Source: Burkholderiales bacterium (GTDB lineage Bacteria > Pseudomonadota > Gammaproteobacteria > Burkholderiales > SG8-39). From it: DNA of 64,000 nucleotides. Positions within the stretch are counted from its first letter, which is position 1. Every line of letters begins with the position of its first letter. The notes beneath the pieces are model-generated. The model was given only the letters and a program-made list of their open reading frames with translations. It made no database searches and was not told the DNA's origin. Where the stretch lies: the NCBI GenBank assembly GCA_035499735.1, contig DATJYC010000050.1:658-64657 (forward strand), in the 5' to 3' direction. A program made the translations under genes and the position numbers. Shown piece after piece: positions 2,215-43,813 of this stretch.

Positions 2215-2562
2215 GTGAGCATCAAGCGCCATCAGCACGGCAAGCTCTTCAGCGCAGCCGTGGAGCACGGCGGCGTGGTCTATGTTGCAGGTCAGGTCGC
2301 CGACGACCTCACCCAGGGGGTCCGAGGTCAGACGGAGCAAGTGCTGAAGAAGATCGACGCCATACTCGCCGCTGCAGGAACCAGCAAGTCGAAAATCCTC
2401 TCGGCAAACGTCTGGGTCACCGACATCCGCAACCGCGACGAGATGAACGCCGCGTGGGCCGCGTGGGTGGATCCCGCCAACCTGCCCGCGCGCGCCACGG
2501 TCGAGGCCAAGCTGGCCGACCCTCGCATGCTGGTCGAGATCATGGTGATCTGCGCAAAGTAG
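2215..2562 (+). CDS. RidA/YjgF family protein (reactive-intermediate deaminase fold)
   Basis: 115 aa, AVEHGGVVYVAGQVADD...NVWVTDIRNRDEMNAAW...PARATVEAKL pattern of the YjgF/RidA family; GTG start. Confidence 0.85.
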   Translation: MSIKRHQHGKLFSAAVEHGGVVYVAGQVADDLTQGVRGQTEQVLKKIDAILAAAGTSKSKILSANVWVTDIRNRDEMNAAWAAWVDPANLPARATVEAKLADPRMLVEIMVICAK

Positions 2563-2568
2563 GCCGGG

Positions 2569-4026: not shown

Positions 4027-4040
4027 GTGCGCCCGCCGCT

Positions 4041-5414: not shown

Positions 5415-5480
5415 ATCGGAAGTCCGGGCGAAAAAGGACGCATTCTATGCCGAATCCCCAGGCCGCCCAAATCGGGGTAA

Positions 5481-5501
5481 TGGTCCCTTGAAAAGGGACC
5501 A
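5481..5501 (-). other. 9-bp stem hairpin between the ntrX-like gene and trkA (possible weak terminator or attenuator)
   Basis: TGGTCCCTT / AAGGGACCA inverted repeat with a 3-nt loop. No U-tract follows on the minus strand, so terminator function is uncertain. Confidence 0.3.
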
Positions 5502-5517
5502 CTACCCAAATCGGCCG

Positions 5518-6762: not shown

Positions 6763-6768
6763 CGCAAT

Positions 6769-8880
6769 CTACGCGGCGAGCGGCAGCGAAATCTGCACTG
6801 CGGCGCCGCGCCCGCCGTCCTTGCTCCCCCGGTTCACTATGGTCACCGTTCCGTGATGCTCGTCGATGATCCGCTTGACGATGGCGAGTCCCAGGCCCGT
6901 TCCCTTGGGTTTGGTCGTGACGTAAGGCTCGAAGGCACCCTTGATTATCGCCTCGGGGAAGCCGCATCCGTTGTCGCTGATTCGCAGCCATATCTGTCCG
7001 CCGGCGAGCTCGGTCGTCACCTCGATTTTCGGATCGCTGTTCCCCGCCAGAGCGTCCTGGGCATTCTGGAGTAGGTTGTGAATGACCTGCCGGAGACGGT
7101 CCGGGTCGCCGCGCACCAGCGGCAGGTTCTTGCCGAGGCTCGCGTGTATGCGAGTCCCCGACTGCTCGTACAGGGCGAGAACCTCGGCCAGCAGCCTGTT
7201 CAAATCCAGCCCTCCGAGCTGGGGGGCCGGCGTGCGGGCGTAGTCGCGGAACTCGTCCACCATGTTCTTCATCGCCGTGACCTGCGCGACGATGGTCTCG
7301 GTGGCGTGATCCAGAGCGCGGGCGGCCTCCGGGGCGAGCTTGTCGATGAGTTTCGCCTGGAGCCTCTCGGCCGCCAGCTGGATCGGCGTGAGCGGATTCT
7401 TGATCTCGTGCGCGAGCCTGCGCGCAACTTCGCCCCAAGCCGTCGCGCGTTGCGCCGCGATCAACTGGGTTATGTCGTCGAACACGACGACATAACCCCC
7501 GCCTCCGGCGGCGGGTAGCGGCGAGCCCCTCACCAGGATCACCGCGCCCCGGTCGCGCATCTCGATCTGCTGCTGCCAGGGCACCTCCCTGTGCTCGGCG
7601 AGTTCCGAGCGCAGGGTCCGGGCGAACTCCGGGAGCACCGGCCAGTCGGCGAGCGTGAGGCCCGCAAGGGACGCCAGGTTCTCGTGCAGAATGCGCCCCG
7701 CGCCGCTGTTTGCGATCCGCAGCGCCAGTTCCTCGTCGAAGACCAGCACGCCCGCGGACAGATTGGCGAGAATGCTCTCCAGATAGGCCTTGGCGGTCTC
7801 CAGCTGCGCCTGATTGAGCTGAGCGGCACGCTGCGCCTCGCCGAGCTGCTCGGTCATGCTGTTGAACGAGCTTGTGAGTATGCCCAGCTCGTCCCGGCTC
7901 GTGACCTGCGCGCGACGCGAGAAGTCGCCCCGCGCGACAGCTTGAGTGCCCTCGGCAAGCACCGAGAGGGGACTGGACAAACGCCGCGAGAGGAGAAAGG
8001 CCAGCGCTATCGCCGACAGCAGCGCGAGGAGGAGCGTCAGCGTCAACGTGAGGATATAAATCTCCTTCAGGCCCTGACGCGACAGCGACAGCTCCTTGTA
8101 CGCGCGATACACGCTCTGCACCGATTCGCCCTGCTCCGCCAAAGCTTGCGGGACCCAGTGGGTCAGCTGCAGGAAGCGCGCGTCGCCTCGCCTGCTCGAG
8201 CCTTCGAGCGACACGATCACCCGAAGCAGAAGCCCCTTGTCGCCTACCGGCTCGACCGCGCCGTATCCCCGGACCTGGTGGGCGTCGCGCAGCGCCTGAG
8301 GTCCAGGAGCCGGCGCCTCCATCTTCAGCCCCTCGCGGTGGGCCACGGCCACGACGCCGCCCTGACCGTTCAGCAGCGCGGCCTCCTCGACATACGCCTG
8401 CTCGCGCACGCGCGCCAGCAGCGCGGGCTGCTCGCGCGCGGAAACTTCAGACAGGTCGAGCGCCATCACGTGCGCTTTGAGGAGAAGCTCGTTGAGCATG
8501 ACGTCCAGCGCCGCGCGCCCCAGGTTGAGCCCGCCCTCCAACGCCCGCTCGACGCGAACGTCGAACCAGGATTCGATGCTCTTTGAGAGAAACTGCAGTG
8601 AAACGGTGTAGACGAGCAGGCCGGGAACGACCCCCACCAGGGCGAACATGACCAGCACGCGGAACGTCAGGAGCGAGCCGAATACCTTGGCGCGGCGCTG
8701 GCGCGCGAGCTTGGAGAGCTGGAATACGACGAGCCCGAGCAGCGCCAGGGCGATGGCAGCATTCAACCCGAGGAGCAGCGGGTAGTGCTCCGCGAACAAG
8801 GGCGAGTTCGCGGTCGCGGCGGCAAGCAGGAAAAGCAATATGCCGCCGAGCGCCGCGCTTGCGATCAGCACATAGGTCAT
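6769..8880 (-). CDS. ntrY: NtrY-like sensor histidine kinase (TM-HAMP-PAS-HisKA-HATPase)
   Basis: H-box RRLAHEIKNPLTPI, N-box HNLLQNAQDA, G-boxes DNGCGF and GTGLGLAIV; N-terminal TM helices. Start taken at ATG 8880 (MTYVLIAS), which forms an ATGA overlap with the upstream stop; the track ORF extends to 8946. Confidence 0.9.
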   Translation of the reverse strand: MTYVLIASAALGGILLFLLAAATANSPLFAEHYPLLLGLNAAIALALLGLVVFQLSKLARQRRAKVFGSLLTFRVLVMFALVGVVPGLLVYTVSLQFLSKSIESWFDVRVERALEGGLNLGRAALDVMLNELLLKAHVMALDLSEVSAREQPALLARVREQAYVEEAALLNGQGGVVAVAHREGLKMEAPAPGPQALRDAHQVRGYGAVEPVGDKGLLLRVIVSLEGSSRRGDARFLQLTHWVPQALAEQGESVQSVYRAYKELSLSRQGLKEIYILTLTLTLLLALLSAIALAFLLSRRLSSPLSVLAEGTQAVARGDFSRRAQVTSRDELGILTSSFNSMTEQLGEAQRAAQLNQAQLETAKAYLESILANLSAGVLVFDEELALRIANSGAGRILHENLASLAGLTLADWPVLPEFARTLRSELAEHREVPWQQQIEMRDRGAVILVRGSPLPAAGGGGYVVVFDDITQLIAAQRATAWGEVARRLAHEIKNPLTPIQLAAERLQAKLIDKLAPEAARALDHATETIVAQVTAMKNMVDEFRDYARTPAPQLGGLDLNRLLAEVLALYEQSGTRIHASLGKNLPLVRGDPDRLRQVIHNLLQNAQDALAGNSDPKIEVTTELAGGQIWLRISDNGCGFPEAIIKGAFEPYVTTKPKGTGLGLAIVKRIIDEHHGTVTIVNRGSKDGGRGAAVQISLPLAA

Positions 8881-31875: not shown

Positions 31876-32522
31876 TGGCTCTCGCCGCGGTGTCGCAGGA
31901 CGTGCTGGGCAAGCAGCTTGAGCACGGCATGCGAGCTCTGGGGCTCGAGACGAGCAACGAGGTCCGGCAACGGCTGCTACAGCACCTCGAATTGCTCGAC
32001 AAATGGAATCGGGTCCACAACCTGACCTCCATACGGGACAGGGCAAAAGCGGTGAGTGTGCACATACTTGACAGCCTGACCATCGTCCCGTACCTGCAGG
32101 GCAAGCGGCTGCTGGACGCGGGCAGCGGCGCGGGGTACCCGGGGATTCCCATCGCTCTGGTCAAACCGGACATCGAGGTGGATCTTCTCGACAGCAATCA
32201 TAAGAAGTGCGCCTTTCTCAGGCAGGCGGTCGCCGAGCTGGGATTGAAAAACGTCCAGATCGTCTGCGAACGGCTCGAGTCGTGGCGCCCCTCGGAGCGT
32301 TTCGACTGCGTGGTCTCGCGCGCCGTTGCCGAGATCGCTGAGGTCATCGGCCTCGTCCACCATCTGCTCGCGCCCGGGGGCGTGATCGCGGCGATGAAGG
32401 GCCTGCATCCCTTCGAGGAGATTGAGCGGATTCCGCCCGGGTATCGCGTGCGCCAAGTCCATGCGCTTACCGTGCCAGGCCTCGACGCCAAACGGCACCT
32501 GGTGTTGATCGAGCGCGCATGA
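31872..32522 (+). CDS. rsmG: 16S rRNA (guanine527-N7)-methyltransferase RsmG (GidB)
   Basis: [16 protein letters not shown]...[17 protein letters not shown]...SRAVA; ATGA overlap with the mnmG stop. Confidence 0.95.
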
Positions 32523-33301
32523 CGCGGATCCTGGCCGTCACGAATCAGAAGGGCGGGGTCGGAAAGACCACGACCAGCGTCAACCTCGCGGCGGGACTGG
32601 CGCAGTCCGGAAAGCGCGTACTGCTCGTGGACCTCGATCCCCAGGGGAACGCCACGATGGGAAGCGGCGTCGACAAGCGGGCGCTCAAGACGTCCGTCTA
32701 CCAGGTGTTGCTGGGACTGGCGACTGCGGAGTCGGCGCGCCAGCGGTCCGAGGCCGGGGGCTACGACCTGATTCCCGCCAACCGCGATCTCGCCGGCGCG
32801 GAGGTCGAGCTCGTCGACCTCGAGCACCGCGAGTCCCGACTCAAGGGCGCGCTCCGCTCGATCGTGGACCAGTACGATTTCATTCTGCTCGACTGTCCCC
32901 CGTCGCTCAGCATGCTCACGGTGAACGCGCTCGTCGCCGCCCACGCCGTGATGATCCCCATGCAATGCGAGTACTACGCCCTCGAGGGATTGTCGGACCT
33001 GGTCAACACCATCAAGAAGGTGCGCCAGGGCCTGAATCCGAAGCTCGAAATCGAGGGGCTGCTGCGAACGATGTTCGACCCGCGCAACACGCTCGCGCAG
33101 CAGGTATCGGCGCAGCTCCAAGAGCATTTCGGCGACAAGGTGTACGCGACCGTAATCCCGCGCAACGTCCGCCTTGCCGAGGCGCCGAGCTTCGGCGCGC
33201 CCGCCGTCAAGCTCGACCGCGAATGCAAGGGCTCGCAGGCGTATGTCGAGTTGGTCGGCGAGATACTGTCACGCAATGGGCTCGAGGCGGCGGCGCAATG
33301 A
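32519..33301 (+). CDS. parA: Chromosome partitioning ATPase ParA (Soj)
   Basis: Deviant Walker A NQKGGVGKTTTSVNLA and DLDPQGNAT; ATGA overlaps on both sides. Confidence 0.96.
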   Translation: MTRILAVTNQKGGVGKTTTSVNLAAGLAQSGKRVLLVDLDPQGNATMGSGVDKRALKTSVYQVLLGLATAESARQRSEAGGYDLIPANRDLAGAEVELVDLEHRESRLKGALRSIVDQYDFILLDCPPSLSMLTVNALVAAHAVMIPMQCEYYALEGLSDLVNTIKKVRQGLNPKLEIEGLLRTMFDPRNTLAQQVSAQLQEHFGDKVYATVIPRNVRLAEAPSFGAPAVKLDRECKGSQAYVELVGEILSRNGLEAAAQ

Positions 33302-34158
33302 AGCTGAAGGGGCTGGGCAGGGGCCTCGACGCGCTGCTCGACCGCGACTCCGACGGCGCGCCCCTGGCCGAGCACCAGGCGACGCTCCGCGTCGAGCAGC
33401 TGCAGCGCGGCCGCTATCAGCCGCGCACGAAGATGGACGATGCCTCGCTGCAGGAACTCGCCGCTTCCATCAGGAAGCAAGGCCTGATGCAGCCGATCTT
33501 GGTGCGGCCCGTCAGCGGCGATCGTTACGAGATCATCGCAGGGGAGCGGCGCTGGCGCGCGGCGAAGATCGCTGGACTGGGCGAGGTGCCAGTGCTCGTG
33601 CGAGAAGTGCCGGACTCGGCCGCGCTCGCCATGGCGCTGGTCGAAAACATCCAGCGGGAGGACCTCAACCCGCTCGAGGAAGCGAATGGCGTGCAGCGGC
33701 TGATCGACGAGTTCAAGCTCACGCATCAGGAGGCCGCGGAGGCAATCGGCCGCTCCCGCACGGCGACGACCAATCTGCTGCGGCTCCGCAACCTCCAGAA
33801 GCCGGTGCAGGCGATGGTGTTCGACGGCAAGCTCGAAATGGGGCACGCACGCGCGCTGCTCGCGCTCGAAGGGCGCAGGCAGGAGTCGGTCGCGCGCCGT
33901 GTCGCCTCGCGCGCGCTCTCGGTGAGGCAGACGGAGGAACTGGTGAACGCGATCCTACACCCGGAGCCCAAGATGCGACGAAGGGTCGGCACGGATCGCG
34001 ATATCGCCCGCCTCGAGGAAGAGCTGTCCGAGGAGATCGGAACCACCATCCACATCAAACCGGCGAAAAAAGGCGGGGGCAAGCTGATCATCACATATTC
34101 GAGCCCGGAGCATCTGGACGATCTCCTGTCCGGATTCCGCCGCCGGCGGCCGTCCTGA
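33298..34158 (+). CDS. parB: Chromosome partitioning protein ParB (Spo0J)
   Basis: [10 protein letters not shown], ParB box [37 protein letters not shown]. Confidence 0.96.
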
Positions 34159-34168
34159 GGCGCACGCC

Positions 34169-35389
34169 ATGGATGCGCGGCGCGCGTGGCCGAAGGAAGG
34201 CATTACCCGCATCCCGTACTGGATCTACTCCGACCCGGAGATCTACGCGCGCGAGCAGGAGCGCGTGTTCTGCGGCGCTTACTGGAGCTATGTCGCACTG
34301 GAGGCCGAGCTTCCCGAGCCGGGCGATTTCAAGCGGACCTTCATCGGCGAAAAGCCGGTCGTGGTGGTGCGCGACAAGGACGGCTCGATCAACGCCGTGG
34401 AGAATCGCTGCGCGCATCGCGGCGTGCAATTCTGCCAGCGCCACCTCGGCAACGCCTCCGAGTTCATGTGCCCCTACCACCAGTGGACCTACGATCTGAA
34501 GGGCAATCTGATCGGCGTCCCGTTCCGCCGGGGAGTGAAGAAGCAGGGAGGCATGCCAGCCGACTTCAATCCGGAGGATCACGGGCTGCGAAAGCTCTCC
34601 GTGGCGCGCCGCCACGGGGTGATCTTCGCGTCGTTCGCATCCGAGCTGCAGCCGCTCGAGGAGTACTTCGGGCCCGCGATGCTCGCCCTGTTCGACCGGG
34701 TCTTCGACGGGCGCGAGCTCAGGCTCCTCGGCTACTCGCGCCAGCTGATTCCCGCGAACTGGAAGCTGATGTTCGAGAACATCAAGGATCCCTACCACGC
34801 GAGCCTCCTTCACGTGTTCCTCGTGAGTTTCGGCCTGTTCCGCGCCGACCAGCCTTCCCGGGTGGAGATGGATTCCACCGGACGGCACGGCGCCCTCATC
34901 TCCTCGCGCGGCGAGCAGAAGAGGACCGACGACAACGCGGACATGAAGTCGCTGCTTGCCAACTTCCGCCTTCAGGACCCGGCGCTGCTCGATCCGGTCC
35001 GCGAATTTCCTGACCACACCGTGGTGATGACCACGCTCTGGCCCAACCTCATCATCCAGCAGCAATCGAACACCCTGGCGATGCGTCAGCTCGTCACCCG
35101 GGGCCCTGGCGAGTTCGAGCTGGCCTGGACCTTCTTCGGCTACGCTGACGACGACGAGGCAATGACCCGGCGGCGGCTGCGGCAGGCCAACCTGATGGGG
35201 CCGGCCGGTTTCGTCTCGATCGACGACAGCGAGGTCATGAAGTTCTCCCAGGCAGGGGTCGGACCCTATCCCGATTCGGCCGGCGTGATGGAGATGGGTG
35301 GACGCGACTGGAAGGATGAGTCGCACATGGTTACCGAGTCCGTGATACGGGCCTTCTACGACTACTATCGACAGGTCATGGAGATCTAG
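34169..35389 (+). CDS. Rieske non-haem-iron ring-hydroxylating oxygenase, alpha subunit (TphA2/NagG/anthranilate-dioxygenase-like clade)
   Basis: Rieske CAHRG...CPYHQW motif; catalytic-domain motif NWKLMFENIKDPYHASLLH. About 406 aa, collinear by eye with terephthalate dioxygenase and salicylate-5-hydroxylase large subunits as recalled from memory. Confidence 0.88.
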   Translation: MDARRAWPKEGITRIPYWIYSDPEIYAREQERVFCGAYWSYVALEAELPEPGDFKRTFIGEKPVVVVRDKDGSINAVENRCAHRGVQFCQRHLGNASEFMCPYHQWTYDLKGNLIGVPFRRGVKKQGGMPADFNPEDHGLRKLSVARRHGVIFASFASELQPLEEYFGPAMLALFDRVFDGRELRLLGYSRQLIPANWKLMFENIKDPYHASLLHVFLVSFGLFRADQPSRVEMDSTGRHGALISSRGEQKRTDDNADMKSLLANFRLQDPALLDPVREFPDHTVVMTTLWPNLIIQQQSNTLAMRQLVTRGPGEFELAWTFFGYADDDEAMTRRRLRQANLMGPAGFVSIDDSEVMKFSQAGVGPYPDSAGVMEMGGRDWKDESHMVTESVIRAFYDYYRQVMEI

Positions 35390-35439
35390 CTTTATGTTTA
35401 AGATGGAGAATATTGTGGCAATCGAACGTTCGTTCTATT

Positions 35440-35940
35440 ATGAGCGCAGCTGAGCGCTACCTGGCTCTAAGCGCCGGAGACTTGCGCCTGGCGGTCGAGG
35501 AGCTCTACGCCGACTACGCGGCCTGCCTCGACGAAGAGCGCTTCGAGGACTGGCCGGAGTTCTTCACCGACCCCTGCCTCTACAAGATCGTGCCGCGCGA
35601 GAATTTCGAGCGCGGCCTGCCGCTGGCGACTTGGCTGTGCGAGAGCAAGGGCTTTCTCGCCGACCGGGTGACCGCGATCCGCAAGACCGCGGTGTACGCG
35701 CCGCGCTACCTTCGCCGCATGGTGAGCGGGATACGCGTGCTCGGCTGGACCGACGCGGTGCTCGAAGTCCGCGCGAGCTACCTGGCGGTTGAAACCCTGC
35801 AGGACGAGCTCACCCGCGTCTTCAACGCCGGCCAGTATCGCGACAAGCTGGTCGTCGACGGCGGCAAGCTGAGGTTTCGTGAAAAGCTCTGCATCTTCGA
35901 CAGCATTCTCGTTCCCAACAGCCTGATCTATCCCCTCTAG
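35440..35940 (+). CDS. Ring-hydroxylating oxygenase beta subunit (SnoaL/NTF2-like)
   Basis: 166 aa, LYADYAACLDEERFEDWPEFFTD...YKIVPRENF pattern of small subunits; directly follows the alpha subunit. Start taken at ATG 35440. Confidence 0.85.
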   Translation: MSAAERYLALSAGDLRLAVEELYADYAACLDEERFEDWPEFFTDPCLYKIVPRENFERGLPLATWLCESKGFLADRVTAIRKTAVYAPRYLRRMVSGIRVLGWTDAVLEVRASYLAVETLQDELTRVFNAGQYRDKLVVDGGKLRFREKLCIFDSILVPNSLIYPL

Positions 35941-35943
35941 CGA

Positions 35944-36255
35944 ATGAAAGAAAACTGGATCAAAGTCGCAGCGGCCGCCGATGTTCCCGCGGACGGAACC
36001 CTGCTCGTCAACCTCGGCGCCGAACCCGTCTGTCTCTACAACCTCGCCGGCAGGATCTTCGCGACCCACGACACCTGCACCCACGGTCAGGCGAGCCTCG
36101 CCGACGGTTTCATCGAGGGCGAGGAAATCGAATGCCCGCTGCATCAGGGCCGGTTCCACATCGCCACCGGCAGGGCGACGGCCGTGCCGTGCACCGAGGA
36201 CATCCGCTGCTACGGGGTAAAGGTCGAGAACGGCGCGGTGTTCCTGAAGGAGTAG
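35944..36255 (+). CDS. Rieske-type [2Fe-2S] ferredoxin component
   Basis: 103 aa with CTHGQ...CPLHQGRF Rieske ligand motifs. Confidence 0.88.
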   Translation: MKENWIKVAAAADVPADGTLLVNLGAEPVCLYNLAGRIFATHDTCTHGQASLADGFIEGEEIECPLHQGRFHIATGRATAVPCTEDIRCYGVKVENGAVFLKE

Positions 36256-36257
36256 CG

Positions 36258-37238
36258 ATGGACAAAGTGGCGCTGACGCTCGCCATCGGCGACTACGAGC
36301 ACACGCGCGATCTGGCGAGCGGACGCGTGCAGGTCCAGGGGGTGACCCTCAACGTGCTGACGCTGTCGCCGGAAGAGACCTTCTTTCGCTTCACCCGATT
36401 CCGCGAGTGGGAAGTATCCGAGATGTCGATGGGCAAGTACGTCGCCCTGCGCTCGCAGGACGACGACAGCATCGCGGCGATCCCCGTCTTCCCCTCGCGT
36501 GTGTTCCGCCACTCGATGATCTACGTGCGCGACGGAGGCGGGATCGAGCGGCCGGAGCAGCTGAAGGGCGCCCGTATCGGCGTGCCCGAATGGGCGCAGA
36601 CCGCCGTCGTCTACGCGCGCGGTTACCTCGTGCACCAGGTCGGCGTGCCGCTCGATTCGCCCGACTGGGTACAGGCAGGCGTGAACGAGTTCGGCCGCGT
36701 CGAGAAGGTGAAGCTCAGGCTGCCGGGCGGGGTGCGGCTTAAGCCCGAGCCCGGCCGCTGCCTCAACGACATGCTGCTCGCAGGCGACCTCGACGCGGTG
36801 CTGTCGGCGCGCCCCCCGATCGGCCTCGGCAGGGGAATCCGTCGGCTGTTTCCCGATTACGAAGCCGCGGAGGAGGCCTATTTCAGGCAGACGGGCATTT
36901 TCCCCATCATGCACGTGATCGCGATCAAGGCCGACGTGCTCGCGCGCCATCCCTGGCTCGCGATGAACCTGTACAAATCCTTCGACGAGGCGAAGCGCCG
37001 CTCGCTCGAGCGTCTGTCCGACATCACCGCCTCGCACGCGCCCCTCGCCTGGATCGCGCCGTACGCCGAGCGCATGAAGGCGCTGTTCGGCGAGGACTTC
37101 TGGCCCTACGGCCTGGAGCGGAATCGCAAGACCCTCCAGGCCTTCGTCGACTATGCTTTCGAGCAGGGCGTCTGCCACCGCAGGCTCGCGCTCGAAGAGC
37201 TGTTTCCCAGGCAGGTGCTGACTTCGTTCAAGGTGTGA
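36258..37238 (+). CDS. 4,5-dihydroxyphthalate decarboxylase-like protein (periplasmic-binding-protein-fold, cytoplasmic)
   Basis: MDKVALTLAIGDYEHTRDL..G.V...GV.LNVL.LSPEETFFRF.RF.EWEVSEMSMG...AIPVFPSRVFRHS.IYV...FPDY...YF..TGIFPIMHVIAIK...FWPYGLE.NRK.L. This matches my recollection of the PhtD/Pht5 family pattern. Confidence 0.7.
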   Translation: MDKVALTLAIGDYEHTRDLASGRVQVQGVTLNVLTLSPEETFFRFTRFREWEVSEMSMGKYVALRSQDDDSIAAIPVFPSRVFRHSMIYVRDGGGIERPEQLKGARIGVPEWAQTAVVYARGYLVHQVGVPLDSPDWVQAGVNEFGRVEKVKLRLPGGVRLKPEPGRCLNDMLLAGDLDAVLSARPPIGLGRGIRRLFPDYEAAEEAYFRQTGIFPIMHVIAIKADVLARHPWLAMNLYKSFDEAKRRSLERLSDITASHAPLAWIAPYAERMKALFGEDFWPYGLERNRKTLQAFVDYAFEQGVCHRRLALEELFPRQVLTSFKV

Positions 37239-37239
37239 C

Positions 37240-38235
37240 ATGAGCGACGCGATCTGGATCACGGAAAGCGAAGTCGTCCAACTGATGGATCTCAAGGAGG
37301 CCATCGCGGCGCTCGAGGCTGCGCTGCGCGAGGAGGCGCGCGGCGAGGCGCAGAATATGACCAAGACGCTCCTCCAGTACGGTAGGAACAACCTGCACGC
37401 GATCGGCGCGAAGCTGGGGCCCCTCGTCGGCACCAAGACCTGGACTCATACCCAAGGCGGCACCTGTCCCCTGCTCCTCCTGTGGAGCGCCGAGGACGGC
37501 TCGCTCGCCGCGGTGATCGAGGCCTTCGCGCTCGGCAACCTGCGCACGGGCGGCATCTCGGGCGTCGCGGCCGACTGGATGGCAGGAAAAGACGCCAAGG
37601 TCATGGCGCTCGCCGGAACGGGCAAGCAGGCGCTCGCGCAGGTCGGAGCGATGGTCGCCGTGCGGCCGATCGAGCGGCTGCAGATCTACAGCCCGCGCGC
37701 CGAATCGCGCGAGGAATTCGCGGGAAAGGCGCGCGAGGAGTTCGGCGTCGAGACGAAACCCTGCGCCTCAGCGGAAGAGGCGTGCAGGGGCGCCCAGATC
37801 GTGACGCTGGTGACCCGGGCCTCGCGGCCTTTCGTGAGGGCGGACATGCTCGAGCGGGGGGCGCACTTGAACGCGGTGGGCGCCATCGCTCCGGACCGGG
37901 AGGAGTTCTCCCAGGACGTCTTCGACCGGGCGACGCGGGTCGCCGTCGACAACCTCGCTGCCGTGCGGCAGCTCTCGCGCGAATTCATGACGCGCTACGC
38001 ATCGAGCGGCTGGGAGGGGGTCCTGCCCTTGTCGGAGCTTGTCGCGCAGGGGAAAAGGCGGGCGGACTCGGACGATATCTCGCTCTTCAAGGCGATGGGG
38101 ATGGGCATCTCGGACCTTGCGCTCGGCGTCGAGCTGGTTCGGCGGGCGCGCGAGCGCGGGCTCGGCCGCCCCATCCCGCAGCCGAAGAAAGCCAAGGCCC
38201 GGCTCGCGGCGGGACGAGCCAAGAGCCCCGTCTAG
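37240..38235 (+). CDS. Ornithine cyclodeaminase / mu-crystallin family NAD(P)-dependent protein
   Basis: OCD_Mu_crystall pattern: LRTGGISGVAADWMA, Rossmann ALAGTGKQALAQV, VTLVTRASRPF, LNAVGA. Confidence 0.82.
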   Translation: MSDAIWITESEVVQLMDLKEAIAALEAALREEARGEAQNMTKTLLQYGRNNLHAIGAKLGPLVGTKTWTHTQGGTCPLLLLWSAEDGSLAAVIEAFALGNLRTGGISGVAADWMAGKDAKVMALAGTGKQALAQVGAMVAVRPIERLQIYSPRAESREEFAGKAREEFGVETKPCASAEEACRGAQIVTLVTRASRPFVRADMLERGAHLNAVGAIAPDREEFSQDVFDRATRVAVDNLAAVRQLSREFMTRYASSGWEGVLPLSELVAQGKRRADSDDISLFKAMGMGISDLALGVELVRRARERGLGRPIPQPKKAKARLAAGRAKSPV

Positions 38236-38269
38236 GGAGTACGATCCGTTCTCGAGCGCAGGAGGCGGC

Positions 38270-39394
38270 ATGAACGACTTCAGGAAGCACTTTCAGCGGC
38301 TGCAGGGCCGCTTCGTCGACCGTACCGGTCACGAAGCGGCAGACGAGAACAGCTACTGGGCCCCGATCGTGGTCGCCCGGGCGGAGATCGACGCCGAGGT
38401 CGAGCGCCTCGCGAGCCTGCCGCTGCCCGCGAACGGCAGGCGAGAATCGCTGATCGTCCATCCTCAGGCGGAGGGGTACGCGCCCGGGTTCGCGCCCGGC
38501 ATCCAAGTGAAGCTCTCCGTGCTCAAGCCGGGCGAGAGGTCCGCGGCTTTCCGCCACAACGCAACCGAGGTGAACTTCTGCATCCGCGGCTCGGGCGCGA
38601 CGCTCGTCGCCGGGAAGCGCATCGCTTTTGAGCAATACGACGTGTGGAATCACCCTTCATATGCAGTCTATCGCCACACGAACGACGGCAAGGATGTCCA
38701 GGTCAGGCTCACGTATTCGAACGTTCCCTTGTTGCAGCATATGCAGGTGTATCTCCCGGAAGACGAGCCGGAGGTGGAGCTCCGCTCGGTGGAGGAAGCG
38801 GAGGCGGGCGCGAGCGACCCGCGCCGCAAGAGCCCGTACGGAATGATCCGCATCGGCGCAGACGGCGGCATGCTGATGCCCTATGAGATCCTCATCAACC
38901 CGGAAGCGGTCGTGTCCAAGCCGCTGCATTTCCCCTGGAAGGACGTGAAGCGCGAGCTCGACAAGCTCGAGGCGCTCGGCAAGGACTACGTCGGGCGGCG
39001 CCTCTATATGATGTACAACCCGGTCACCGGGCGTACGAACGGAATCACTCCGAATTTCTTCGCGACCATGACCATCCGGCCGCCGAAGATCGTCGACCGC
39101 CCGCACCGGCACGTGTCGGCGGCGATCAACTACTACTTCCACGGCACAGGCTATTCGACAGTCGCGGGCAACCGGTACGAATGGGGGCCGGGCGACCTGA
39201 TGCTCTCGGCGCCGGGCTGGGCGGTGCACAACCACGCGTCCAACGACGACTACGTCTACGAGCTGACCGTGCAGGACCAGCCGCTCAACATCTACATGGA
39301 ATCGCTGCTGTGGCAGGAGAACCTGAAGAAGCCCGCTGCGCTGCTCGGCAGCGAGCCGGGTTTCGAGACCAACCGCGACAAGGCCGCCGCGTAG
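38270..39394 (+). CDS. Bicupin protein, gentisate-1,2-dioxygenase-like
   Basis: 374 aa with two cupin barrels. The C-terminal barrel carries HRH...H...H (PHRHVSAAINYYFHG...WAVHNH); the N-terminal barrel has only FRHN. AGGAGG precedes ATG 38270. Confidence 0.72.
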   Translation: MNDFRKHFQRLQGRFVDRTGHEAADENSYWAPIVVARAEIDAEVERLASLPLPANGRRESLIVHPQAEGYAPGFAPGIQVKLSVLKPGERSAAFRHNATEVNFCIRGSGATLVAGKRIAFEQYDVWNHPSYAVYRHTNDGKDVQVRLTYSNVPLLQHMQVYLPEDEPEVELRSVEEAEAGASDPRRKSPYGMIRIGADGGMLMPYEILINPEAVVSKPLHFPWKDVKRELDKLEALGKDYVGRRLYMMYNPVTGRTNGITPNFFATMTIRPPKIVDRPHRHVSAAINYYFHGTGYSTVAGNRYEWGPGDLMLSAPGWAVHNHASNDDYVYELTVQDQPLNIYMESLLWQENLKKPAALLGSEPGFETNRDKAAA

Positions 39395-39402
39395 CCTGAG
39401 GT

Positions 39403-40365
39403 CTACTCCGGCTTGATGTTGGCGTCGCGCGCGAGCTTGGTGTACATCGCCAGCTCCGTCTTCATCGTCTCGAGGAGCTGCTCGGGCGTGGTTCCCACGG
39501 CTTCGAGGCCGACGCTATTCAGGCGCTCCTTGACCACCTGCGGATCGCGCACGATCTTGTTGATCTCGGCATTCAGGCGATCGATGATGGGCCGCGGCGT
39601 GCCCGCGGGTGCCATCACGCCCAGCCACACGGTGACCGCGTAGCCGGGCAGCGGCCCGGCCTCCGCGATCGTCGGGATATCGGGAAGAATCGCCGTTCGC
39701 GTGGGAGCGGCGATCGCGATCGGCCGTAGCTTTCCGGATTTGTAGTGCGGCAGCAGCGAGTTCTCGGCGGCGATGGTGAAATCGATCTCTCCCGACAAGA
39801 GCGCGGGGATGATTCCGGCCGAGCCCTTGTAGGGTACGTGCACGACGTTGATGCCGGTCATCGAGCGCAGCAGCTCGACGGCGAGATGGTGCGGCGAGCC
39901 GACTCCCGCGGTGCCATAGGTCAGCGGCTTCGGCGATTTCTTGGCGTATTCGATGAACTCCTTCAGCGAGTGCACCGGCATGGCGGAATTGACGGTCAGA
40001 CCGAACGGAATCGTCGCGGCGAGCGAGATCGGCTCGAAGTCCTTGATCGGGTCGTAGGGGAGCTTCGCTACGACTGCGGCGCTCATGACGTGCGCCGACT
40101 CCGACATCAGTATCGTGTAGCCGTCTGCCGGCGCCTTGGCCACGAAGTCGCGCGCGATGTTCCCGGCCGCCCCGGGCTTGTTCTCGACCACGAATGGCTG
40201 GCCGAGCACTGGCTGCAGGTGCTCGGAAAGCAGCCTCGCCAGATAGTCGGGCGAGCCGCCCGGCGGAAGCGGGACGACGAAGCGGATGGAGTGGTTCGGC
40301 CATGGCTGCGCGAGCGCGGCCGCCGGGAGCGCGAACAGCGCGCATAGAAGGATTCGCGGAGTCAT
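39403..40365 (-). CDS. Tripartite tricarboxylate transporter substrate-binding protein (Bug/TctC family)
   Basis: Signal peptide, then IRFVVPLPPGGSPDYLARLL...ENKPGAAGNIA...YGTAGVGSPHHL, the Bug family pattern. Confidence 0.9.
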   Translation of the reverse strand: MTPRILLCALFALPAAALAQPWPNHSIRFVVPLPPGGSPDYLARLLSEHLQPVLGQPFVVENKPGAAGNIARDFVAKAPADGYTILMSESAHVMSAAVVAKLPYDPIKDFEPISLAATIPFGLTVNSAMPVHSLKEFIEYAKKSPKPLTYGTAGVGSPHHLAVELLRSMTGINVVHVPYKGSAGIIPALLSGEIDFTIAAENSLLPHYKSGKLRPIAIAAPTRTAILPDIPTIAEAGPLPGYAVTVWLGVMAPAGTPRPIIDRLNAEINKIVRDPQVVKERLNSVGLEAVGTTPEQLLETMKTELAMYTKLARDANIKPE

Positions 40366-40382
40366 GTCGTTCTCCTCGCTGG

Positions 40383-42173
40383 TCAGCGTTTCTGGCTCGC
40401 GCCCGAGCCGCTCATGTTGGTGTCATAGCCCGGGGCCACGCGCACGTCGACAACGCACACCGCCCCGTCCCGCGCCAGGCGCAGCCCCTTCTCGATCGCC
40501 GGCGCGAGACCGGAGACCTCGGTCACCGGGCCGATGCCTTCGGCGCCCTGCGCGCGGGCCATCATCGCGAGGTCGATGTCGGGCCCGCTGATGCGCTGCC
40601 CGATCCAGCGGTTCTCGAGGGGCCGGGAGCGCTCCTTCGCGACCCGCTCCTGATGCAGCTCGTCGTTGAAGAACGAACGGTTGTTGGCGACAAGGACGAG
40701 GCACGGTATGCCGTAATGCGTCGCGGTCCACAGCGCGGTGTTGCCCATGAGGAAGTCGCCGTCGCCCATGATCGCAACCGGAAGCCTGCCGCTCCCTTTG
40801 AGCGCGAGCGCCGCGCCCACGGTGATGCCGGGGCCCGCGCCGACGCCGCCTCCCCCCTCGGAGCCGATGTAATCGAGTGGATGCCGGAAGTGGCGGTACG
40901 CGCCGTGCCAGCCGAGCGGCAGGCGCGTCATGCAGACGTCCGTGCCTTGGGTCGCGGCGTTCAAGGCGTCGGCGAGCGTGCGTAGGGTCACCTTGTCCGA
41001 AGCAGCCGGGAGAGGCTGCGGCTGGGCCGCGACTGCAGCCGGGCGGCCCTTCACCGCGTCGAGAAGCAGCGGCACCACCGCGTCCGGCTCGCACATCATG
41101 TAGACATCCACGGGCGGCAGGCCCTGGTAGTCCATGCTCCAACCGCGGTGCAGGTGCGCGTCGGGAGAGACGTGGATCACCTTCGCGCCGACCGGCTCTC
41201 CGCCCCACGCCTGCTTCAGCACGCCCGCGAGGTCGACCCAGTCGAGCGCGAGCACCACGTCGGCTTCGCGCAGCAGCTTCGCCGTGTCCGGAGAGAGAAA
41301 GGTCGCGGGCGGCGCGGCGTGCAGCGGGTGGTCGGTGGGAAACGCCGCGCCGAGCTTGATGTCCGTAAGAACGCGCGCCTGCAGCTTCTCGGCGAGCGCG
41401 ACGCGGTCCTTCCACGCCGGCTCGCTCCTGCCGACGCGGCCGGCGAGGATCGCCGGGTGCTTCGCACCCGAGAGCAGCTTCACCGCGGCCTCGATCGACG
41501 CAGCCTGGGGCCGCACCGGGTCTGCGGGGCGAAAGCGCTTCACGTCGGGAAGCGCGGGCAGCGGGCCGACCTTCGCTTCCTGCAGGCCGGCGTCCAGGTT
41601 GACGTAGGTCGGCCCTCGGGGCGCGGTGCTCGCGATCTGCGCGGCACGCAGGATCGCCTCGTACGCCGCCGCGACGGAAGCCGGCTGGTTGTCCCACTTC
41701 GTGTAGTCGCGCACGAGCGCGCCCTGGTCGGAGGCGGTGTGGATCCAGTCGATCCAGGGCCTGCGCTTCGCCGCATCCCAGGGGCCGGTCGCGCCGAGGA
41801 CGAGCATCGGCACGCGGTCGCACCAGGCGTTGAAGATCGCCATGCTCGCGTGCATCAGTCCGACGTTCGAATGCACCACCGCGCCCATCATGCGCTCCGA
41901 GACCTTGGCGTACCCCTGAGCGATCGCCACCGCCGACTCCTCGTGCAGGCACAGCAGCATCTGCGGGCGCGTGTTGCCGAGGTAATTGACGATGGAGTCG
42001 TGCAGCCCGCGGTAGCTCGCTCCAGGGTTGAGCGCAAGATAGGGGATGTCTACGGCGCGCAGCACCGCGGCGATCGCGTCACTGCCCCAGACTTCCTTCT
42101 GCTCGGGGCTCGCGACAGGCGCCTCAGCGCGGACTCCCGAGATGTTTTCCTTGGCGTTCATGGCGGCGATCAT
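40383..42173 (-). CDS. Thiamine-diphosphate-dependent enzyme (acetolactate synthase / benzoylformate decarboxylase superfamily)
   Basis: N-terminal Pyr domain (ALNPGASYRGLHDS...HEESAVAIAQGYAK) and C-terminal ThDP motif GDGDFLMGNTALWTA...NN. Start at ATG 42173 (ATGA overlap); the track ORF is 91 codons longer. Confidence 0.85.
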   Translation of the reverse strand: MIAAMNAKENISGVRAEAPVASPEQKEVWGSDAIAAVLRAVDIPYLALNPGASYRGLHDSIVNYLGNTRPQMLLCLHEESAVAIAQGYAKVSERMMGAVVHSNVGLMHASMAIFNAWCDRVPMLVLGATGPWDAAKRRPWIDWIHTASDQGALVRDYTKWDNQPASVAAAYEAILRAAQIASTAPRGPTYVNLDAGLQEAKVGPLPALPDVKRFRPADPVRPQAASIEAAVKLLSGAKHPAILAGRVGRSEPAWKDRVALAEKLQARVLTDIKLGAAFPTDHPLHAAPPATFLSPDTAKLLREADVVLALDWVDLAGVLKQAWGGEPVGAKVIHVSPDAHLHRGWSMDYQGLPPVDVYMMCEPDAVVPLLLDAVKGRPAAVAAQPQPLPAASDKVTLRTLADALNAATQGTDVCMTRLPLGWHGAYRHFRHPLDYIGSEGGGGVGAGPGITVGAALALKGSGRLPVAIMGDGDFLMGNTALWTATHYGIPCLVLVANNRSFFNDELHQERVAKERSRPLENRWIGQRISGPDIDLAMMARAQGAEGIGPVTEVSGLAPAIEKGLRLARDGAVCVVDVRVAPGYDTNMSGSGASQKR

Positions 42174-43813
42174 AGCAGGTGTCCAACGACCCGAGCGAGG
42201 AGCGCGTCGGCGTCCGCCGCCGGCGCGTTTCCCCGCCACGCGACGTGGTGATCGGGGCGGATGAGCGCGAGATCGCGCGCATACAGGTCCCGCGCCTCGT
42301 CGCTCGCGACGTCGACTACGGACAACGGCAGGCCGCGGCGGCGCGCCGCCGCCTCGATCGAGCCGACGTCGATCCCGGGGTCGAAGCGCAACAGCGTGAA
42401 ATCGCGGCCGAAGCGGTCGAAGATCGAGACGCCGTCCTCGAGCCACAGGTGGGGCGCGCGCGCTCCCGGCACGGCGCTCGGCGCGTACCGGTGCCAGTCG
42501 TCGGGCGGCGGCGCCGAGCCGTCGGTGACGACGATAGGGGAGCCCCCGTAGAACACTCCCAGATGGATTCCCGGGATTTCGAACTCGGTCGCGGCGTGGC
42601 GCAGGAGCCGCTCGCCGAGCGCTGCGCGGGCCGCATCGCCCGCCGCGCCCGGGTCTTCCAGCTCGGGCGCGAGCGCTATCCTCCCGATGGAATCGGCCAT
42701 CGCGCGCGCGAAGCGGGTGTTGCGCTGGGCGATCGGCCTGCGCTCGCGCTCATAGCTCGCGAGGAGCCCCGTCCCGCCCCAGCCCTGGCAGGCGGCGGCG
42801 AGCTTCCAGCCGAGGTTCGACGCATCGTCGACCGAGGTGTTGTAGCCCTGGCCGCCGGTCGGCGTGAAAAGGTGCGCCGCGTCGCCCGCGATGAAGACGC
42901 GCCCGGCGGCGAAGCGCTCCGCGACGAGCGTGAAGCCCGCGGTCCACTCCGCGATGCCCAGGATCTCGAAGGCGAACTCGCGCCCGGCCGCGCGCAGCAG
43001 CGACTCGCGCGCATAGCTCTCGGGATAAGCGCCCTCGCGCGGGAGCTGGACGTGCAGCACCCACAGCTCGCGGCCGTCGATGGCGTTCATGAGCGCGCGC
43101 TGCTCTCGGTTCATCGCCCAGTACTGCCAGGCGCGCGGCGCGCGCACGGCGTCGTAGAACGCGCTCGAGCGCACGTAAACGGCGAGCATCCTGCCGCCCA
43201 TGAAATCGCGCTCTTCGCGCGAGAGTCCCTCGTAGCCCGCGCCGAGCGCCGCGCGCACCAGGCTCCTCGGGCCGTCGCAGCCGACCGCATAGTCGGCCGT
43301 GATGCGCTCGCTTCTGCCGGTTGCGACCTCCTCGACGCTGACCCTTACGCCGCTTTCGCGCTGCTCCATGGCGACCGCGCGCCAGCCGAAGCGCACGTCC
43401 ACCGCGGGCCACCTTTCCGCGTGCTTCTTGAGGATGGCCTCGATGTACATCTGCTGCACGCGGTGCAGGGGCTCGGGCGTCGGCCAGCGCGAAGCCGCGC
43501 CTTCGCGCGCCTCGACGGCCTCGCGCCGGCTTCGACCCTTGAGGCGCGCAAGCTCGTGCCCCGTGTAGCGGGTGAAGTAGGCGATGTCCTGCGGGTAGTC
43601 CTCGGGAAGGCCGAGCGCGCGCATCTCGGCGGCGAAGCCGAGCCGCCGGTAGTGCTCCATCGTGCGCGAGGTGGTGGCGTTTGCCTTGGGGAGAGTGGGA
43701 GGGCCCGGGTCCTCCTCGAGGAGAACGCAGGGCACGCCGCGGCGGCCGAGCTCGATCGCGAGGATCAGGCCCGAGGGACCGCCTCCGACGATCGCGACGC
43801 GGGTGCGCGTCAT
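42170..43813 (-). CDS. FAD-dependent aromatic-ring monooxygenase (PHBH fold, PheA/TfdB/MhpA-like, with C-terminal thioredoxin-like domain)
   Basis: VAIVGGGPSGLILAIELGRRGV dinucleotide motif; DG..S.VR; GRVFIAGDAAHLFTPTGGQGYNT; 547 aa. Confidence 0.88.
   Translation of the reverse strand: MTRTRVAIVGGGPSGLILAIELGRRGVPCVLLEEDPGPPTLPKANATTSRTMEHYRRLGFAAEMRALGLPEDYPQDIAYFTRYTGHELARLKGRSRREAVEAREGAASRWPTPEPLHRVQQMYIEAILKKHAERWPAVDVRFGWRAVAMEQRESGVRVSVEEVATGRSERITADYAVGCDGPRSLVRAALGAGYEGLSREERDFMGGRMLAVYVRSSAFYDAVRAPRAWQYWAMNREQRALMNAIDGRELWVLHVQLPREGAYPESYARESLLRAAGREFAFEILGIAEWTAGFTLVAERFAAGRVFIAGDAAHLFTPTGGQGYNTSVDDASNLGWKLAAACQGWGGTGLLASYERERRPIAQRNTRFARAMADSIGRIALAPELEDPGAAGDAARAALGERLLRHAATEFEIPGIHLGVFYGGSPIVVTDGSAPPPDDWHRYAPSAVPGARAPHLWLEDGVSIFDRFGRDFTLLRFDPGIDVGSIEAAARRRGLPLSVVDVASDEARDLYARDLALIRPDHHVAWRGNAPAADADALLARVVGHLL

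Follow-up and report, generated by a model that had tools for sequence, protein, structure and literature searches.

The 64,000-nucleotide stretch of DNA analysed here (the window; contig DATJYC010000050.1, positions 658 to 64,657 of the forward strand, assembly GCA_035499735.1 of a Burkholderiales bacterium) contains six intact, tightly packed genes on the + strand at 34169-39394, as seen in the list of open reading frames (ORFs) and in Pfam and NCBIfam searches. They encode the alpha and beta subunits of a Rieske oxygenase, a Rieske-type ferredoxin, a PhtD-like protein, an enzyme of the OCD/mu-crystallin family and a bicupin resembling gentisate and salicylate dioxygenases (GDOs and SDOs; Table 1). 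An earlier, sequence-only reading of this DNA had singled out the same six genes as a non-canonical cluster for aromatic acid oxygenation. Its gene set, families and coordinates were correct except for two start codons: the PhtD-like gene begins with the ATG at 36258, not at 36132, and the bicupin gene with the ATG at 38270. The beta subunit gene starts with TTG, 5 nt after GGAG. The intergenic gaps measure 23, 3, 2, 1 and 34 nt, in agreement with the description of the genes as packed, and all six frames are intact with a high GC content at third codon positions (GC3). The six genes are a real single catabolic operon for an aromatic carboxylate, and this operon is the local form of a widespread, non-canonical ring-cleavage module.

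Table 1. Features of the operon, its convergent neighbours and recurrent neighbours of related bicupin genes. For the last column, ORFs around bicupin genes were clustered and counted in 83 loci.
Feature	Coordinates	Strand	Basis	Loci with the feature
Rieske oxygenase alpha subunit, NagG/AndAc/TphA2 clade	34169..35389	+	Pfam Rieske + Ring_hydroxyl_A	30/83
Rieske oxygenase beta subunit	35413..35940	+	Pfam Ring_hydroxyl_B/SnoaL_4	
Rieske-type [2Fe-2S] ferredoxin	35944..36255	+	Pfam Rieske/Rieske_2	32/83
PhtD-like homologue of 4,5-dihydroxyphthalate decarboxylase	36258..37238	+	PDB 9jp7 match	32/83
OCD/mu-crystallin NAD(P)-dependent enzyme, bicupin partner	37240..38235	+	Pfam OCD_Mu_crystall	
Permuted gentisate/salicylate-dioxygenase-like bicupin, putative ring-cleaving Fe(II) dioxygenase	38270..39394	+	HMMER, AlphaFold/Foldseek	
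TctC/Bug-family solute-binding protein, convergent; possible uptake component (association only)	39403..40365	-	Pfam TctC, 213 bits	37/83 (within 7 kb)
Thiamine-diphosphate enzyme, 2-oxo-acid decarboxylase type, convergent operon (association only)	40383..42446	-	BLAST cluster membership	30/83 (within 7 kb)
CMD-family protein, 198 aa				36/83
DHDPS-family gene just 3' of bicupin				35/83
HpaH-like + HpaI-like + aldehyde dehydrogenase instead of DHDPS				about 9/83

The strongest single result concerns the last two genes of the operon. OCD adjoins the bicupin in 60 of the 83 loci, and a search for longer bicupin relatives retrieved 26 protein clusters of natural OCD::bicupin fusions (659-713 residues), all with OCD and cupin Pfam domains. 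In the fusion P0134, residues 1-325 correspond to OCD (45% identity to the protein of the window) and residues 331-680 to the bicupin (56%); it is encoded on a Thermoanaerobaculia contig, in an operon with the order CMD-like gene, fusion, DHDPS-family gene and carboxylate transporter. The existence of these natural fusions indicates that the OCD and bicupin genes of the window are parts of one functional unit. A complex prediction for the two separate proteins ended with a score of 0.00 and gave no answer.

The sequence-only reading had placed the OCD protein in the slot of a diol dehydrogenase. Such a role would fit a phthalate-type pathway, in which the Rieske oxygenase forms a cis-dihydrodiol, OCD re-aromatises it, the PhtD-like enzyme decarboxylates the product and the bicupin cleaves a dihydroxybenzoate. 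The gene order of the window mirrors the succession of oxygenase, (dehydrogenase), decarboxylase and ring cleavage, and the PhtD-like protein is a full-length homologue of the phthalate-pathway decarboxylase. However, OCD is fused to the bicupin and not to an oxygenase, and it accompanies the bicupin even without a Rieske oxygenase in the vicinity. Achromobacter sp. HZ34 has the module, but a search of its genome at E <= 1e-40 found no alpha subunit of the NagG family; in Novosphingobium sp. MD-1 the search found no more than a partial match of 40% identity; and the Ralstonia solanacearum locus has a two-component flavin monooxygenase nearby in place of the Rieske oxygenase. Two-component flavin monooxygenases make no diol. 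Because OCD is fused or adjacent to the bicupin and present where no NagG-family oxygenase was found, it is not a stand-in diol dehydrogenase, and a phthalate-type pathway of this kind is very unlikely.

The bicupin matches 3bu7, 2d40, 8ch4 and 2phd in HMMER searches with its barrels crossed. Its ligand-bearing C-terminal barrel (~215-335) aligns, over residues ~213-333, to the N-terminal catalytic barrel of GDOs and SDOs (residues 48-183 of 3bu7, 2d40 and 2phd), and its N-terminal barrel (~74-160) aligns to the C-terminal barrel of the solved enzymes. These alignments indicate a barrel order swapped relative to the solved gentisate and salicylate dioxygenases, as had been suspected when the arrangement was called the reverse of the classical one. 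GDO/SDO chains make up the top 17 Foldseek matches (probability 1.0, TM ~0.6-0.69) of the AlphaFold2 model (pLDDT 78.7). Among 82 family members, H279, H281 and H320, the counterparts of the three SDO ligands His119, His121 and His160, are invariant, and so are H322 (His162) and R243 (Arg83). The histidine of the 'FHG' motif (H291) varies (H 31, S 22, K 10, Q 9) and, not being conserved, is not a metal ligand. The full HxH...H...H ligand set that the earlier reading assigned to the C-terminal barrel is therefore not supported: the conserved H279/H281/H320/H322 make up a 3-His site plus a second-sphere histidine, without the 'FHG' residue. In the N-terminal barrel the first histidine is lost (F94) and H128 and H136 vary, leaving no complete site.

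Arg127, Gln108 and His162 are conserved among all GDOs, in which Arg83 is a substrate contact and Arg127 the proposed proton shuttle (PMC11264262). In the bicupin, Asn287 replaces Arg127 and Thr268 replaces Gln108, both replacements being invariant in the family. Its scores against the models for gentisate dioxygenase (TIGR02272, gentisate_1_2; 64 bits, cut-off 442) and for the 5-aminosalicylate dioxygenase MabB (NF049978; 83 bits, cut-off 650) are low. Since two residues reported as invariant are missing, the bicupin is not a canonical gentisate dioxygenase; it is built on the GDO plan without being a member of the characterised gentisate dioxygenase family.

The OCD protein scores 154 bits against Pfam PF02423 (OCD_Mu_crystall, gathering score 24) and reaches no NCBIfam equivalog; its best NCBIfam matches are archaeal alanine dehydrogenase and pyrroline/piperideine-2-carboxylate reductases. 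The GxGxQA motif of the NAD(P)-binding Rossmann fold reads GTGKQA, with both glycines and the glutamine invariant among the orthologues, and K42, K66 and R102-T103 are invariant among 56 of them. In OCD-family enzymes, a Lys/Arg set holds the substrate carboxylate and the hydride goes to the adjacent carbon. K42, K66 and R102 are presumably the Lys/Lys/Arg carboxylate-binding positions of the structure 1X7D. At the presumed position of the cyclodeaminase Asp, the segment NAVGAIAPDRE, with GAI in place of 'GGD', has an Ile, I216, which is invariant in an 18-sequence alignment; the catalytic Asp of the 'GGD' segment is Asp228 in P. putida OCD (PDB 1X7D). The segment appears to be reductase-type rather than cyclodeaminase-type, and the protein is apparently not an ornithine or lysine cyclodeaminase proper. 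The pipeline labels 'gentisate 1,2-dioxygenase' and 'ornithine cyclodeaminase' are probably both wrong in detail.

The alpha subunit of the oxygenase aligns over its full length to NagG salicylate 5-hydroxylase (PDB 7c8z) with 499 bits and scores 352 bits against the terephthalate dioxygenase (TPADO) TphA2. Alignments to 7c8z, 7vju and 7q04 show the Rieske motif CxH...CxxH as CAHRG...CPYHQW, an intact 2-His-1-Asp iron site (H210, H215, D353) and, at R306, the Arg that binds the substrate carboxylate across the clade (R309 in TphA2, R323 in NagG; PMC9060491). In TphA2/TPADO, the second (para) carboxylate is bound by N224, S243 and R390 (PMC9060491); their counterparts are F224, L243 and Met in the alpha subunit and W/M/M in NagG, the pocket having been compared with NagG at these three positions. 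The enzyme is thus a NagG-type aryl-carboxylate oxygenase and not a terephthalate dioxygenase, and the earlier placing of the alpha subunit in the TphA2/NagG clade is confirmed, with the clade now read as NagG/TphA2/AndAc. All three components miss the AndAc/AndAd/AndAb equivalog cut-offs (alpha 447 versus 750 bits, beta 139 versus 230, ferredoxin 97.5 versus 150), and the ferredoxin scores 90 bits against an HcaC-like NCBIfam model. The same genome encodes a second NagG-clade Rieske alpha/beta pair with 46% identity (contig C62, 121486-123244).

The PhtD-like protein matches no Pfam or NCBIfam model. Its label was nevertheless well chosen, as it matches PDB 9jp7 from end to end (E 1.6e-78, residues 1-320 versus 21-343). 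Because the genome encodes five further PhtD-like paralogues with 27-46% identity (contigs C62 139513-140487, C24, C39, C43 and C36), its specificity is unreadable from homology. For a 3.7-Mb genome, this number of paralogues is an unusual expansion of a poorly known decarboxylase family. All loci with a PhtD-like gene directly 5' of OCD (32 of 83) fall within the Burkholderiales-dominated part of the bicupin tree.

More than 2400 homologues of the bicupin were found, the best 120 with at least 74% identity. A genome scan yielded 80 bicupin loci (62-91% identity) in Burkholderiales, Sphingomonadales, Rhodospirillales, marine alphaproteobacteria and several gammaproteobacteria. A 46% identical bicupin is encoded on pBB1 of Cupriavidus necator N-1, in a cluster with the order ferredoxin reductase, SnoaL-like, HpaH, HpaI, LysR, ferredoxin, FAH-family, OCD, bicupin, Rieske beta and alpha. 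Rhodococcus koreensis has a 41% identical bicupin, with OCD and DHDPS homologues 7 kb away. The version in the window belongs to a group of 16 related Burkholderiales metagenome-assembled genomes (MAGs; loci L005-L021 and L026) that share the synteny of parA, parB, Rieske alpha, beta, ferredoxin, PhtD-like, OCD and bicupin; their proteins are 75-91% identical. This distribution does not bear out the view of the cluster as a local oddity: the operon is the form that a conserved and widespread module takes in Burkholderiales. The statement that the cluster matches no textbook pathway stands, as no characterised pathway with this gene set was found, and full-text literature searches found no paper describing it.

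The genes that follow the bicupin in other genomes point to the fate of its product. Directly after the bicupin, sphingomonads encode HpaH (359 bits, cut-off 351.5) and HpaI (394 bits, cut-off 369; NCBIfam equivalogs), the C. necator N-1 proteins lie clearly above the equivalog cut-offs (HpaH 446 bits, HpaI 402 bits), and in R. solanacearum an annotated succinate-semialdehyde dehydrogenase (SSADH) follows. HpaH and HpaI convert 2-oxohept-3/4-ene-1,7-dioate to pyruvate and succinate semialdehyde. HpaH/HpaI/SSADH replace a DapA-like enzyme in sphingomonads, Ralstonia, Colwellia and C. necator N-1; elsewhere a DHDPS-family aldolase follows the bicupin, whose best model is TIGR02313, 'HpaI-NOT-DapA', and which scores 255 bits against the dapA model (cut-off 206). 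The 16-MAG group of the window has neither a CMD-like gene nor an adjacent aldolase, and the genome of the window (3.74 Mb, 86 contigs, 96% complete) contains no orthologue of either. On its contig C49, an HpaH-like protein (349.5 bits, cut-off 351.5) and an HpaI-like protein (356.7 bits, cut-off 368.8) are encoded, and these could finish the pathway in trans. The two C49 genes (4871-7103) adjoin another Rieske alpha gene (1073-2404), from which they are separated by a stretch of unclear coding at 2400-4870.

Taken together, the genes are tentatively read as a pathway in which a salicylate-type ring is cleaved by the bicupin, OCD reduces the fission product and the resulting C7 diacid is split to pyruvate and a C4 aldehyde. 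The aromatic acid would be taken up, perhaps by a TTT system, and hydroxylated by the NagG-family three-component oxygenase with a flavoprotein reductase encoded elsewhere in the genome. The PhtD-like enzyme would remove a second carboxyl, if present, to leave an ortho-hydroxybenzoate (salicylate-type) ring, which the bicupin would cleave to a 2-oxohepta-3,5-dienedioate-type compound. OCD would then use NAD(P)H to deliver a hydride to the carbon beside the new terminal carboxylate, giving a product at the oxidation level of 2-hydroxyhepta-2,4-dienedioate or 2-oxohept-3-ene-1,7-dioate. Hydration and splitting would release pyruvate and succinate semialdehyde or a close C4 analogue, a step that may be carried out here by the HpaH/HpaI-like pair in trans, and in other genomes by the adjacent DapA-like aldolase or by HpaH/HpaI with SSADH.

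This reading is consistent with the stoichiometry: salicylate plus O2 would give C7H6O5, the HpaH substrate is C7H8O5, and the difference is exactly one two-electron reduction. As the module has exactly one NAD(P) enzyme, we infer that OCD reduces the fission product, and it would act at the carbon next to the new carboxylate because this is the electrophilic end of a conjugated dienone. The more specific proposal, that the pair is a new two-step unit in which a permuted, Arg127-less dioxygenase cleaves an ortho-hydroxybenzoate and OCD reduces the dienoate C=C beside the carboxylate, is possible though rather doubtful. Candidate substrates are salicylate, a carboxysalicylate (hydroxy-iso-, -tere- or -ortho-phthalate) and 2,3-dihydroxybenzoate. 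A substituted benzoate or benzenedicarboxylate is the most likely kind, much as first suggested. The slot 5' of OCD is filled by three unrelated families, each including decarboxylases (PhtD-like, CMD and FAH-family), and TTT, TRAP and DASS carboxylate transporters lie near module loci. From this slot and these transporters comes a weak hint that the original substrate has a second carboxyl, removed before ring cleavage (by the PhtD-like enzyme in this window) or after it. The CMD-like protein is assigned to its family by an Atlas search only, and a profile search against PDB sequences gave nothing significant.

One alternative is a variant of the gentisate pathway. Here a salicylate (or substituted-salicylate) 5-hydroxylase would feed a divergent gentisate 1,2-dioxygenase and OCD, in place of isomerase and hydrolase, would reduce maleylpyruvate (at the 4-oxo group or C5=C6), after which an aldolase would yield pyruvate and maleate/fumarate semialdehyde or succinate semialdehyde. 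It draws support from NagG, the best solved relative of the alpha subunit, with which hydrophobic residues are shared at the three TPADO-specific positions, and from the best NCBIfam and PDB relatives of the bicupin, which are 5-aminosalicylate, gentisate and 5-nitrosalicylate dioxygenases. It is also in its favour that none of the common architectures among the 83 loci has an adjacent gene for a maleylpyruvate isomerase or hydrolase. Yet the bicupin lacks the Arg127 and Gln108 of GDOs and falls far below the gentisate dioxygenase cut-off. Moreover, two reductions would be needed from maleylpyruvate to the HpaI substrate, and HpaH would be idle, although it is present at equivalog score. The gentisate variant is accordingly considered unlikely.

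In another alternative, the substrate contains nitrogen; it might be an aminosalicylate, a hydroxyanthranilate or an N-heteroaromatic carboxylate. Fission would produce an enamine or alpha-imino acid, OCD would act as an imine reductase to give an amino acid, and the DapA-like enzyme would run the DapA reaction backwards to pyruvate and aspartate semialdehyde. All characterised OCD/mu-crystallin enzymes act on C=N bonds or amino groups next to a carboxylate, and the best NCBIfam matches of the OCD protein are of this kind. In addition, the aldolase of the module exceeds the dapA cut-off, the anthranilate dioxygenase models AndAc/Ad/Ab are the best match of all three oxygenase components, and some loci have genes for molybdenum hydroxylases in the vicinity of the module. 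Against this, the DapA-like enzyme is replaced by HpaH/HpaI/SSADH, which handle nitrogen-free C7/C4 acids, with HpaH and HpaI scoring at equivalog level; the neighbour tally of the 83 loci shows no recurrent deaminase, amidase or aminotransferase; and it is doubtful how abundant the required 3-aminosalicylate-type ring is in nature. A nitrogen substrate is therefore also improbable. The pair of OCD and DapA-like enzyme also brought to mind dipicolinate catabolism, encoded in Alcaligenes faecalis by the dip cluster. This idea was dropped, as the dip cluster appears unrelated; its DipD is reportedly not a Rieske protein. One paper on the cluster names no gene families (PMC11472048). Readings of the picolinate, homarine or hydroxyproline type, raised by the co-occurrence of OCD, DHDPS and TauD, were set aside, as HpaH/HpaI/SSADH point to a nitrogen-free C7 diacid.

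Several observations weigh against reductive processing of a salicylate-type fission product, as preferred above. The alpha subunit is most like a salicylate 5-hydroxylase, which would yield gentisate and not a mono-hydroxy ring, and the operon of the window has no aldolase of its own. To our knowledge, C=C reduction has never been shown for an OCD/mu-crystallin enzyme, the known substrates being imines and amino acids. In 23 of the 83 loci, about 10 of these with full flanks, no OCD gene lies within 7 kb, so that the reduction step may be not obligatory or done otherwise. Eight of these 23 loci carry a flavin reductase; across all 83 loci, both genes occur in 1, OCD only in 59, flavin reductase only in 8 and neither in 15. 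This pattern is suggestive of a flavin reductase replacing OCD, but the lineages are few and the reductase could serve an oxygenase. The C. necator N-1 FAH-family protein scores slightly higher as an acylpyruvate-type hydrolase (195 bits, best) than as HpaG (HpaG-C, 182 bits, second-best). Five loci have both a PhtD-like and a CMD-like gene, whereas 4 loci with Rieske oxygenase, OCD and bicupin have neither, and a quick tree of the bicupins places the PhtD-type loci in between CMD-type ones within the Burkholderiales-dominated branch. The tree suggests that the bicupin substrate is the same in both types of locus. A simple interchange of the PhtD-like and CMD-like proteins was also considered; it is weakened by their co-occurrence, their joint absence and the interleaved tree.

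Parts of the module resemble known systems. In the nag pathway of Ralstonia sp. U2 (salicylate 5-hydroxylase NagGH-NagAaAb, gentisate dioxygenase NagI, isomerase NagL, hydrolase NagK), a three-component Rieske hydroxylase of the same clade is likewise followed by a GDO-fold cupin. The operon differs from it in lacking a reductase, a glutathione-dependent isomerase and an FAH-type hydrolase, in the reversed barrels of its bicupin and the loss of Arg127 and Gln108, and in the added OCD and PhtD-like proteins. The lower phenanthrene pathway of Nocardioides sp. KP7 comprises the 1-hydroxy-2-naphthoate dioxygenase PhdI, the hydratase-aldolase PhdJ and the aldehyde dehydrogenase PhdK. PhdJ is a trans-2'-carboxybenzalpyruvate hydratase-aldolase of the DHDPS/NAL family (PMC5380162). 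The wider module shares with this trio the cleavage of an ortho-hydroxy-carboxylate ring by a GDO-family enzyme, a DHDPS-family split of the 2-oxo-3-enoate product to pyruvate and an aldehyde, and an aldehyde dehydrogenase to oxidise the latter. In contrast to PhdI/PhdJ/PhdK, the ring is probably monocyclic, OCD-type and CMD-type proteins are extra, and the aldolase is DapA / 'HpaI-NOT-DapA'-like rather than a known hydratase-aldolase, with no aldolase in the window.

The lower homoprotocatechuate pathway (decarboxylase/isomerase HpaG, hydratase HpaH, aldolase HpaI, SSADH) is represented by HpaH/HpaI and SSADH after the bicupin in sphingomonads, R. solanacearum and C. necator N-1, and by the FAH-family protein 5' of OCD in the latter, for which HpaG is the second-best model; the module lacks the extradiol HpaD, CHMS dehydrogenase and HpaF of that pathway. 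We know of no entry to the C7 diacid pool via GDO-type cleavage and reduction. With the phthalate pathway (pht/oph; phthalate 4,5-dioxygenase, dihydrodiol dehydrogenase and 4,5-dihydroxyphthalate decarboxylase), the operon shares the homologue of its decarboxylase, and nearby TTT-type binding proteins resemble phthalate-isomer uptake systems. Its oxygenase, however, is of the NagG clade and not a phthalate dioxygenase, there is no dihydrodiol dehydrogenase, and the ring is not cleaved by a protocatechuate dioxygenase. SDO of Pseudaminobacter salicylatoxidans (2phd, 3njz) and the 5-nitrosalicylate dioxygenase NaaB (8ch4) are Fe(II) cupins that have a 3-His site and whose ortho-hydroxybenzoate substrates lack a second hydroxyl. 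NaaB, like the bicupin, lacks Arg127, with a Tyr in NaaB and an Asn in the bicupin. The bicupin is only ~20-30% identical to these enzymes over one barrel. SDO has its domains in the opposite order, and NaaB is a monocupin.

The partner genes reported as missing were searched for more widely. Whole-genome searches with Reductase_C, NAD_binding_1 and Pyr_redox_2 gave no true match on the contig of the window, where the only match is the FAD motif of mnmG; the claim that the window has no ferredoxin reductase is thereby upheld. The same genome does contain a partial ferredoxin reductase, at the edge of contig C16. None of the six genes matches the SDR, Gfo, PdxA, GST or FAH families in Pfam or NCBIfam, in keeping with the reported lack of an SDR, Gfo or PdxA diol dehydrogenase. 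The lack of a fumarylpyruvate hydrolase beside the bicupin is likewise real, since the sole FAH-family gene of the window, at 1395-2210, is ~32 kb upstream of the operon.

Upstream of the operon lie mnmG, rsmG, parA and parB, with 10 nt between the parB stop codon and the alpha start codon. In promoter and terminator scans of 33000-40500, nothing exceeded shuffled expectation. Within 32519-34169, the operon begins 10 nt past the parB stop without a promoter-like or terminator-like site. The abutment on parB without a recognisable promoter, and the missing reductase, regulator and aldolase, could be taken to mean that the six genes are chance neighbours or decaying remnants without joint function. 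This is scarcely credible in view of six intact frames with high GC3, a ten-gene synteny in the 16 related genomes at 75-91% protein identity, and an OCD-bicupin pair that is conserved across phyla and also fused. In a whole lineage, the origin-proximal mnmG-rsmG-parAB unit seems to carry the catabolic operon as a stable appendage.

Carriers of the module live in soil, in freshwater and in the sea; they include soil Burkholderiales, plant-associated Ralstonia, Variovorax and Paraburkholderia, as well as sphingomonads, marine Rhodospirillales and Acidobacteriota. If the proposed pathway is true, it would be a widespread, undescribed route from salicylate-type acids into the HpaH/HpaI pathway to pyruvate and succinate semialdehyde, and it would add a new, non-imine reaction type to the OCD/mu-crystallin family. 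The bicupin could show how such a dioxygenase works without the Arg that is considered its proton shuttle. Once the substrate is established, carbon-cycle and bioremediation models would gain a central aromatic pathway, which matters especially for phthalate-isomer or salicylate-type compounds. The natural fusions and several culturable carriers, among them C. necator N-1, Variovorax defluvii, Paraburkholderia caribensis and Novosphingobium naphthalenivorans, make the question directly testable.

Downstream, the TctC-family gene converges on the bicupin gene with a gap of 8 nt. The thiamine-diphosphate enzyme of the window (40383-42446) falls into one BLAST cluster with L053:15359-17149, which bears TPP_enzyme_N/M/C, and recurs also in non-syntenic loci of Achromobacter, Bordetella, Variovorax and Casimicrobiaceae. 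In these four groups it is often paired with an aldehyde dehydrogenase. It may act in the same pathway as the module, where it would perhaps offer a 2-oxo acid another fate.

Further genes accompany the module elsewhere. In about 20 loci (e.g., L001 8007-9320 and 5135-6424), and not in the window, proteins with a citrate-synthase-like domain behind an N-terminal HTH_17 domain are encoded divergently from the module; they look like ligand-sensing regulators on a citrate synthase fold. In marine alphaproteobacteria (L054 9526-9930, L069 8142-8543, L084 upstream of 2452), a Rieske-type ferredoxin gene lies directly 5' of the bicupin, with no Rieske oxygenase within 9 kb. This ferredoxin might serve the bicupin itself, for example in re-reducing its iron as XylT does for XylE. 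At the Thermoanaerobaculia locus (L095 16665-19390), a class III CoA-transferase and a UbiD-family decarboxylase are encoded ~5.6 kb 3' of the fusion on the same strand, with DHDPS, transporter, NicO and two cupin genes in between. Such a pair is used in anaerobic phthalate degradation and may, by analogy, be a hint at benzenedicarboxylates. The bicupin-aldolase pair is directly followed by a dienelactone hydrolase gene in Steroidobacter (L070 12070-12780), and in Micropepsaceae it is followed by genes for a creatininase-family amidohydrolase and a RibD_C-type reductase (L056 12065-13653). These additions suggest that some variants of the module have lactones or amides as intermediates and make use of other reductases.

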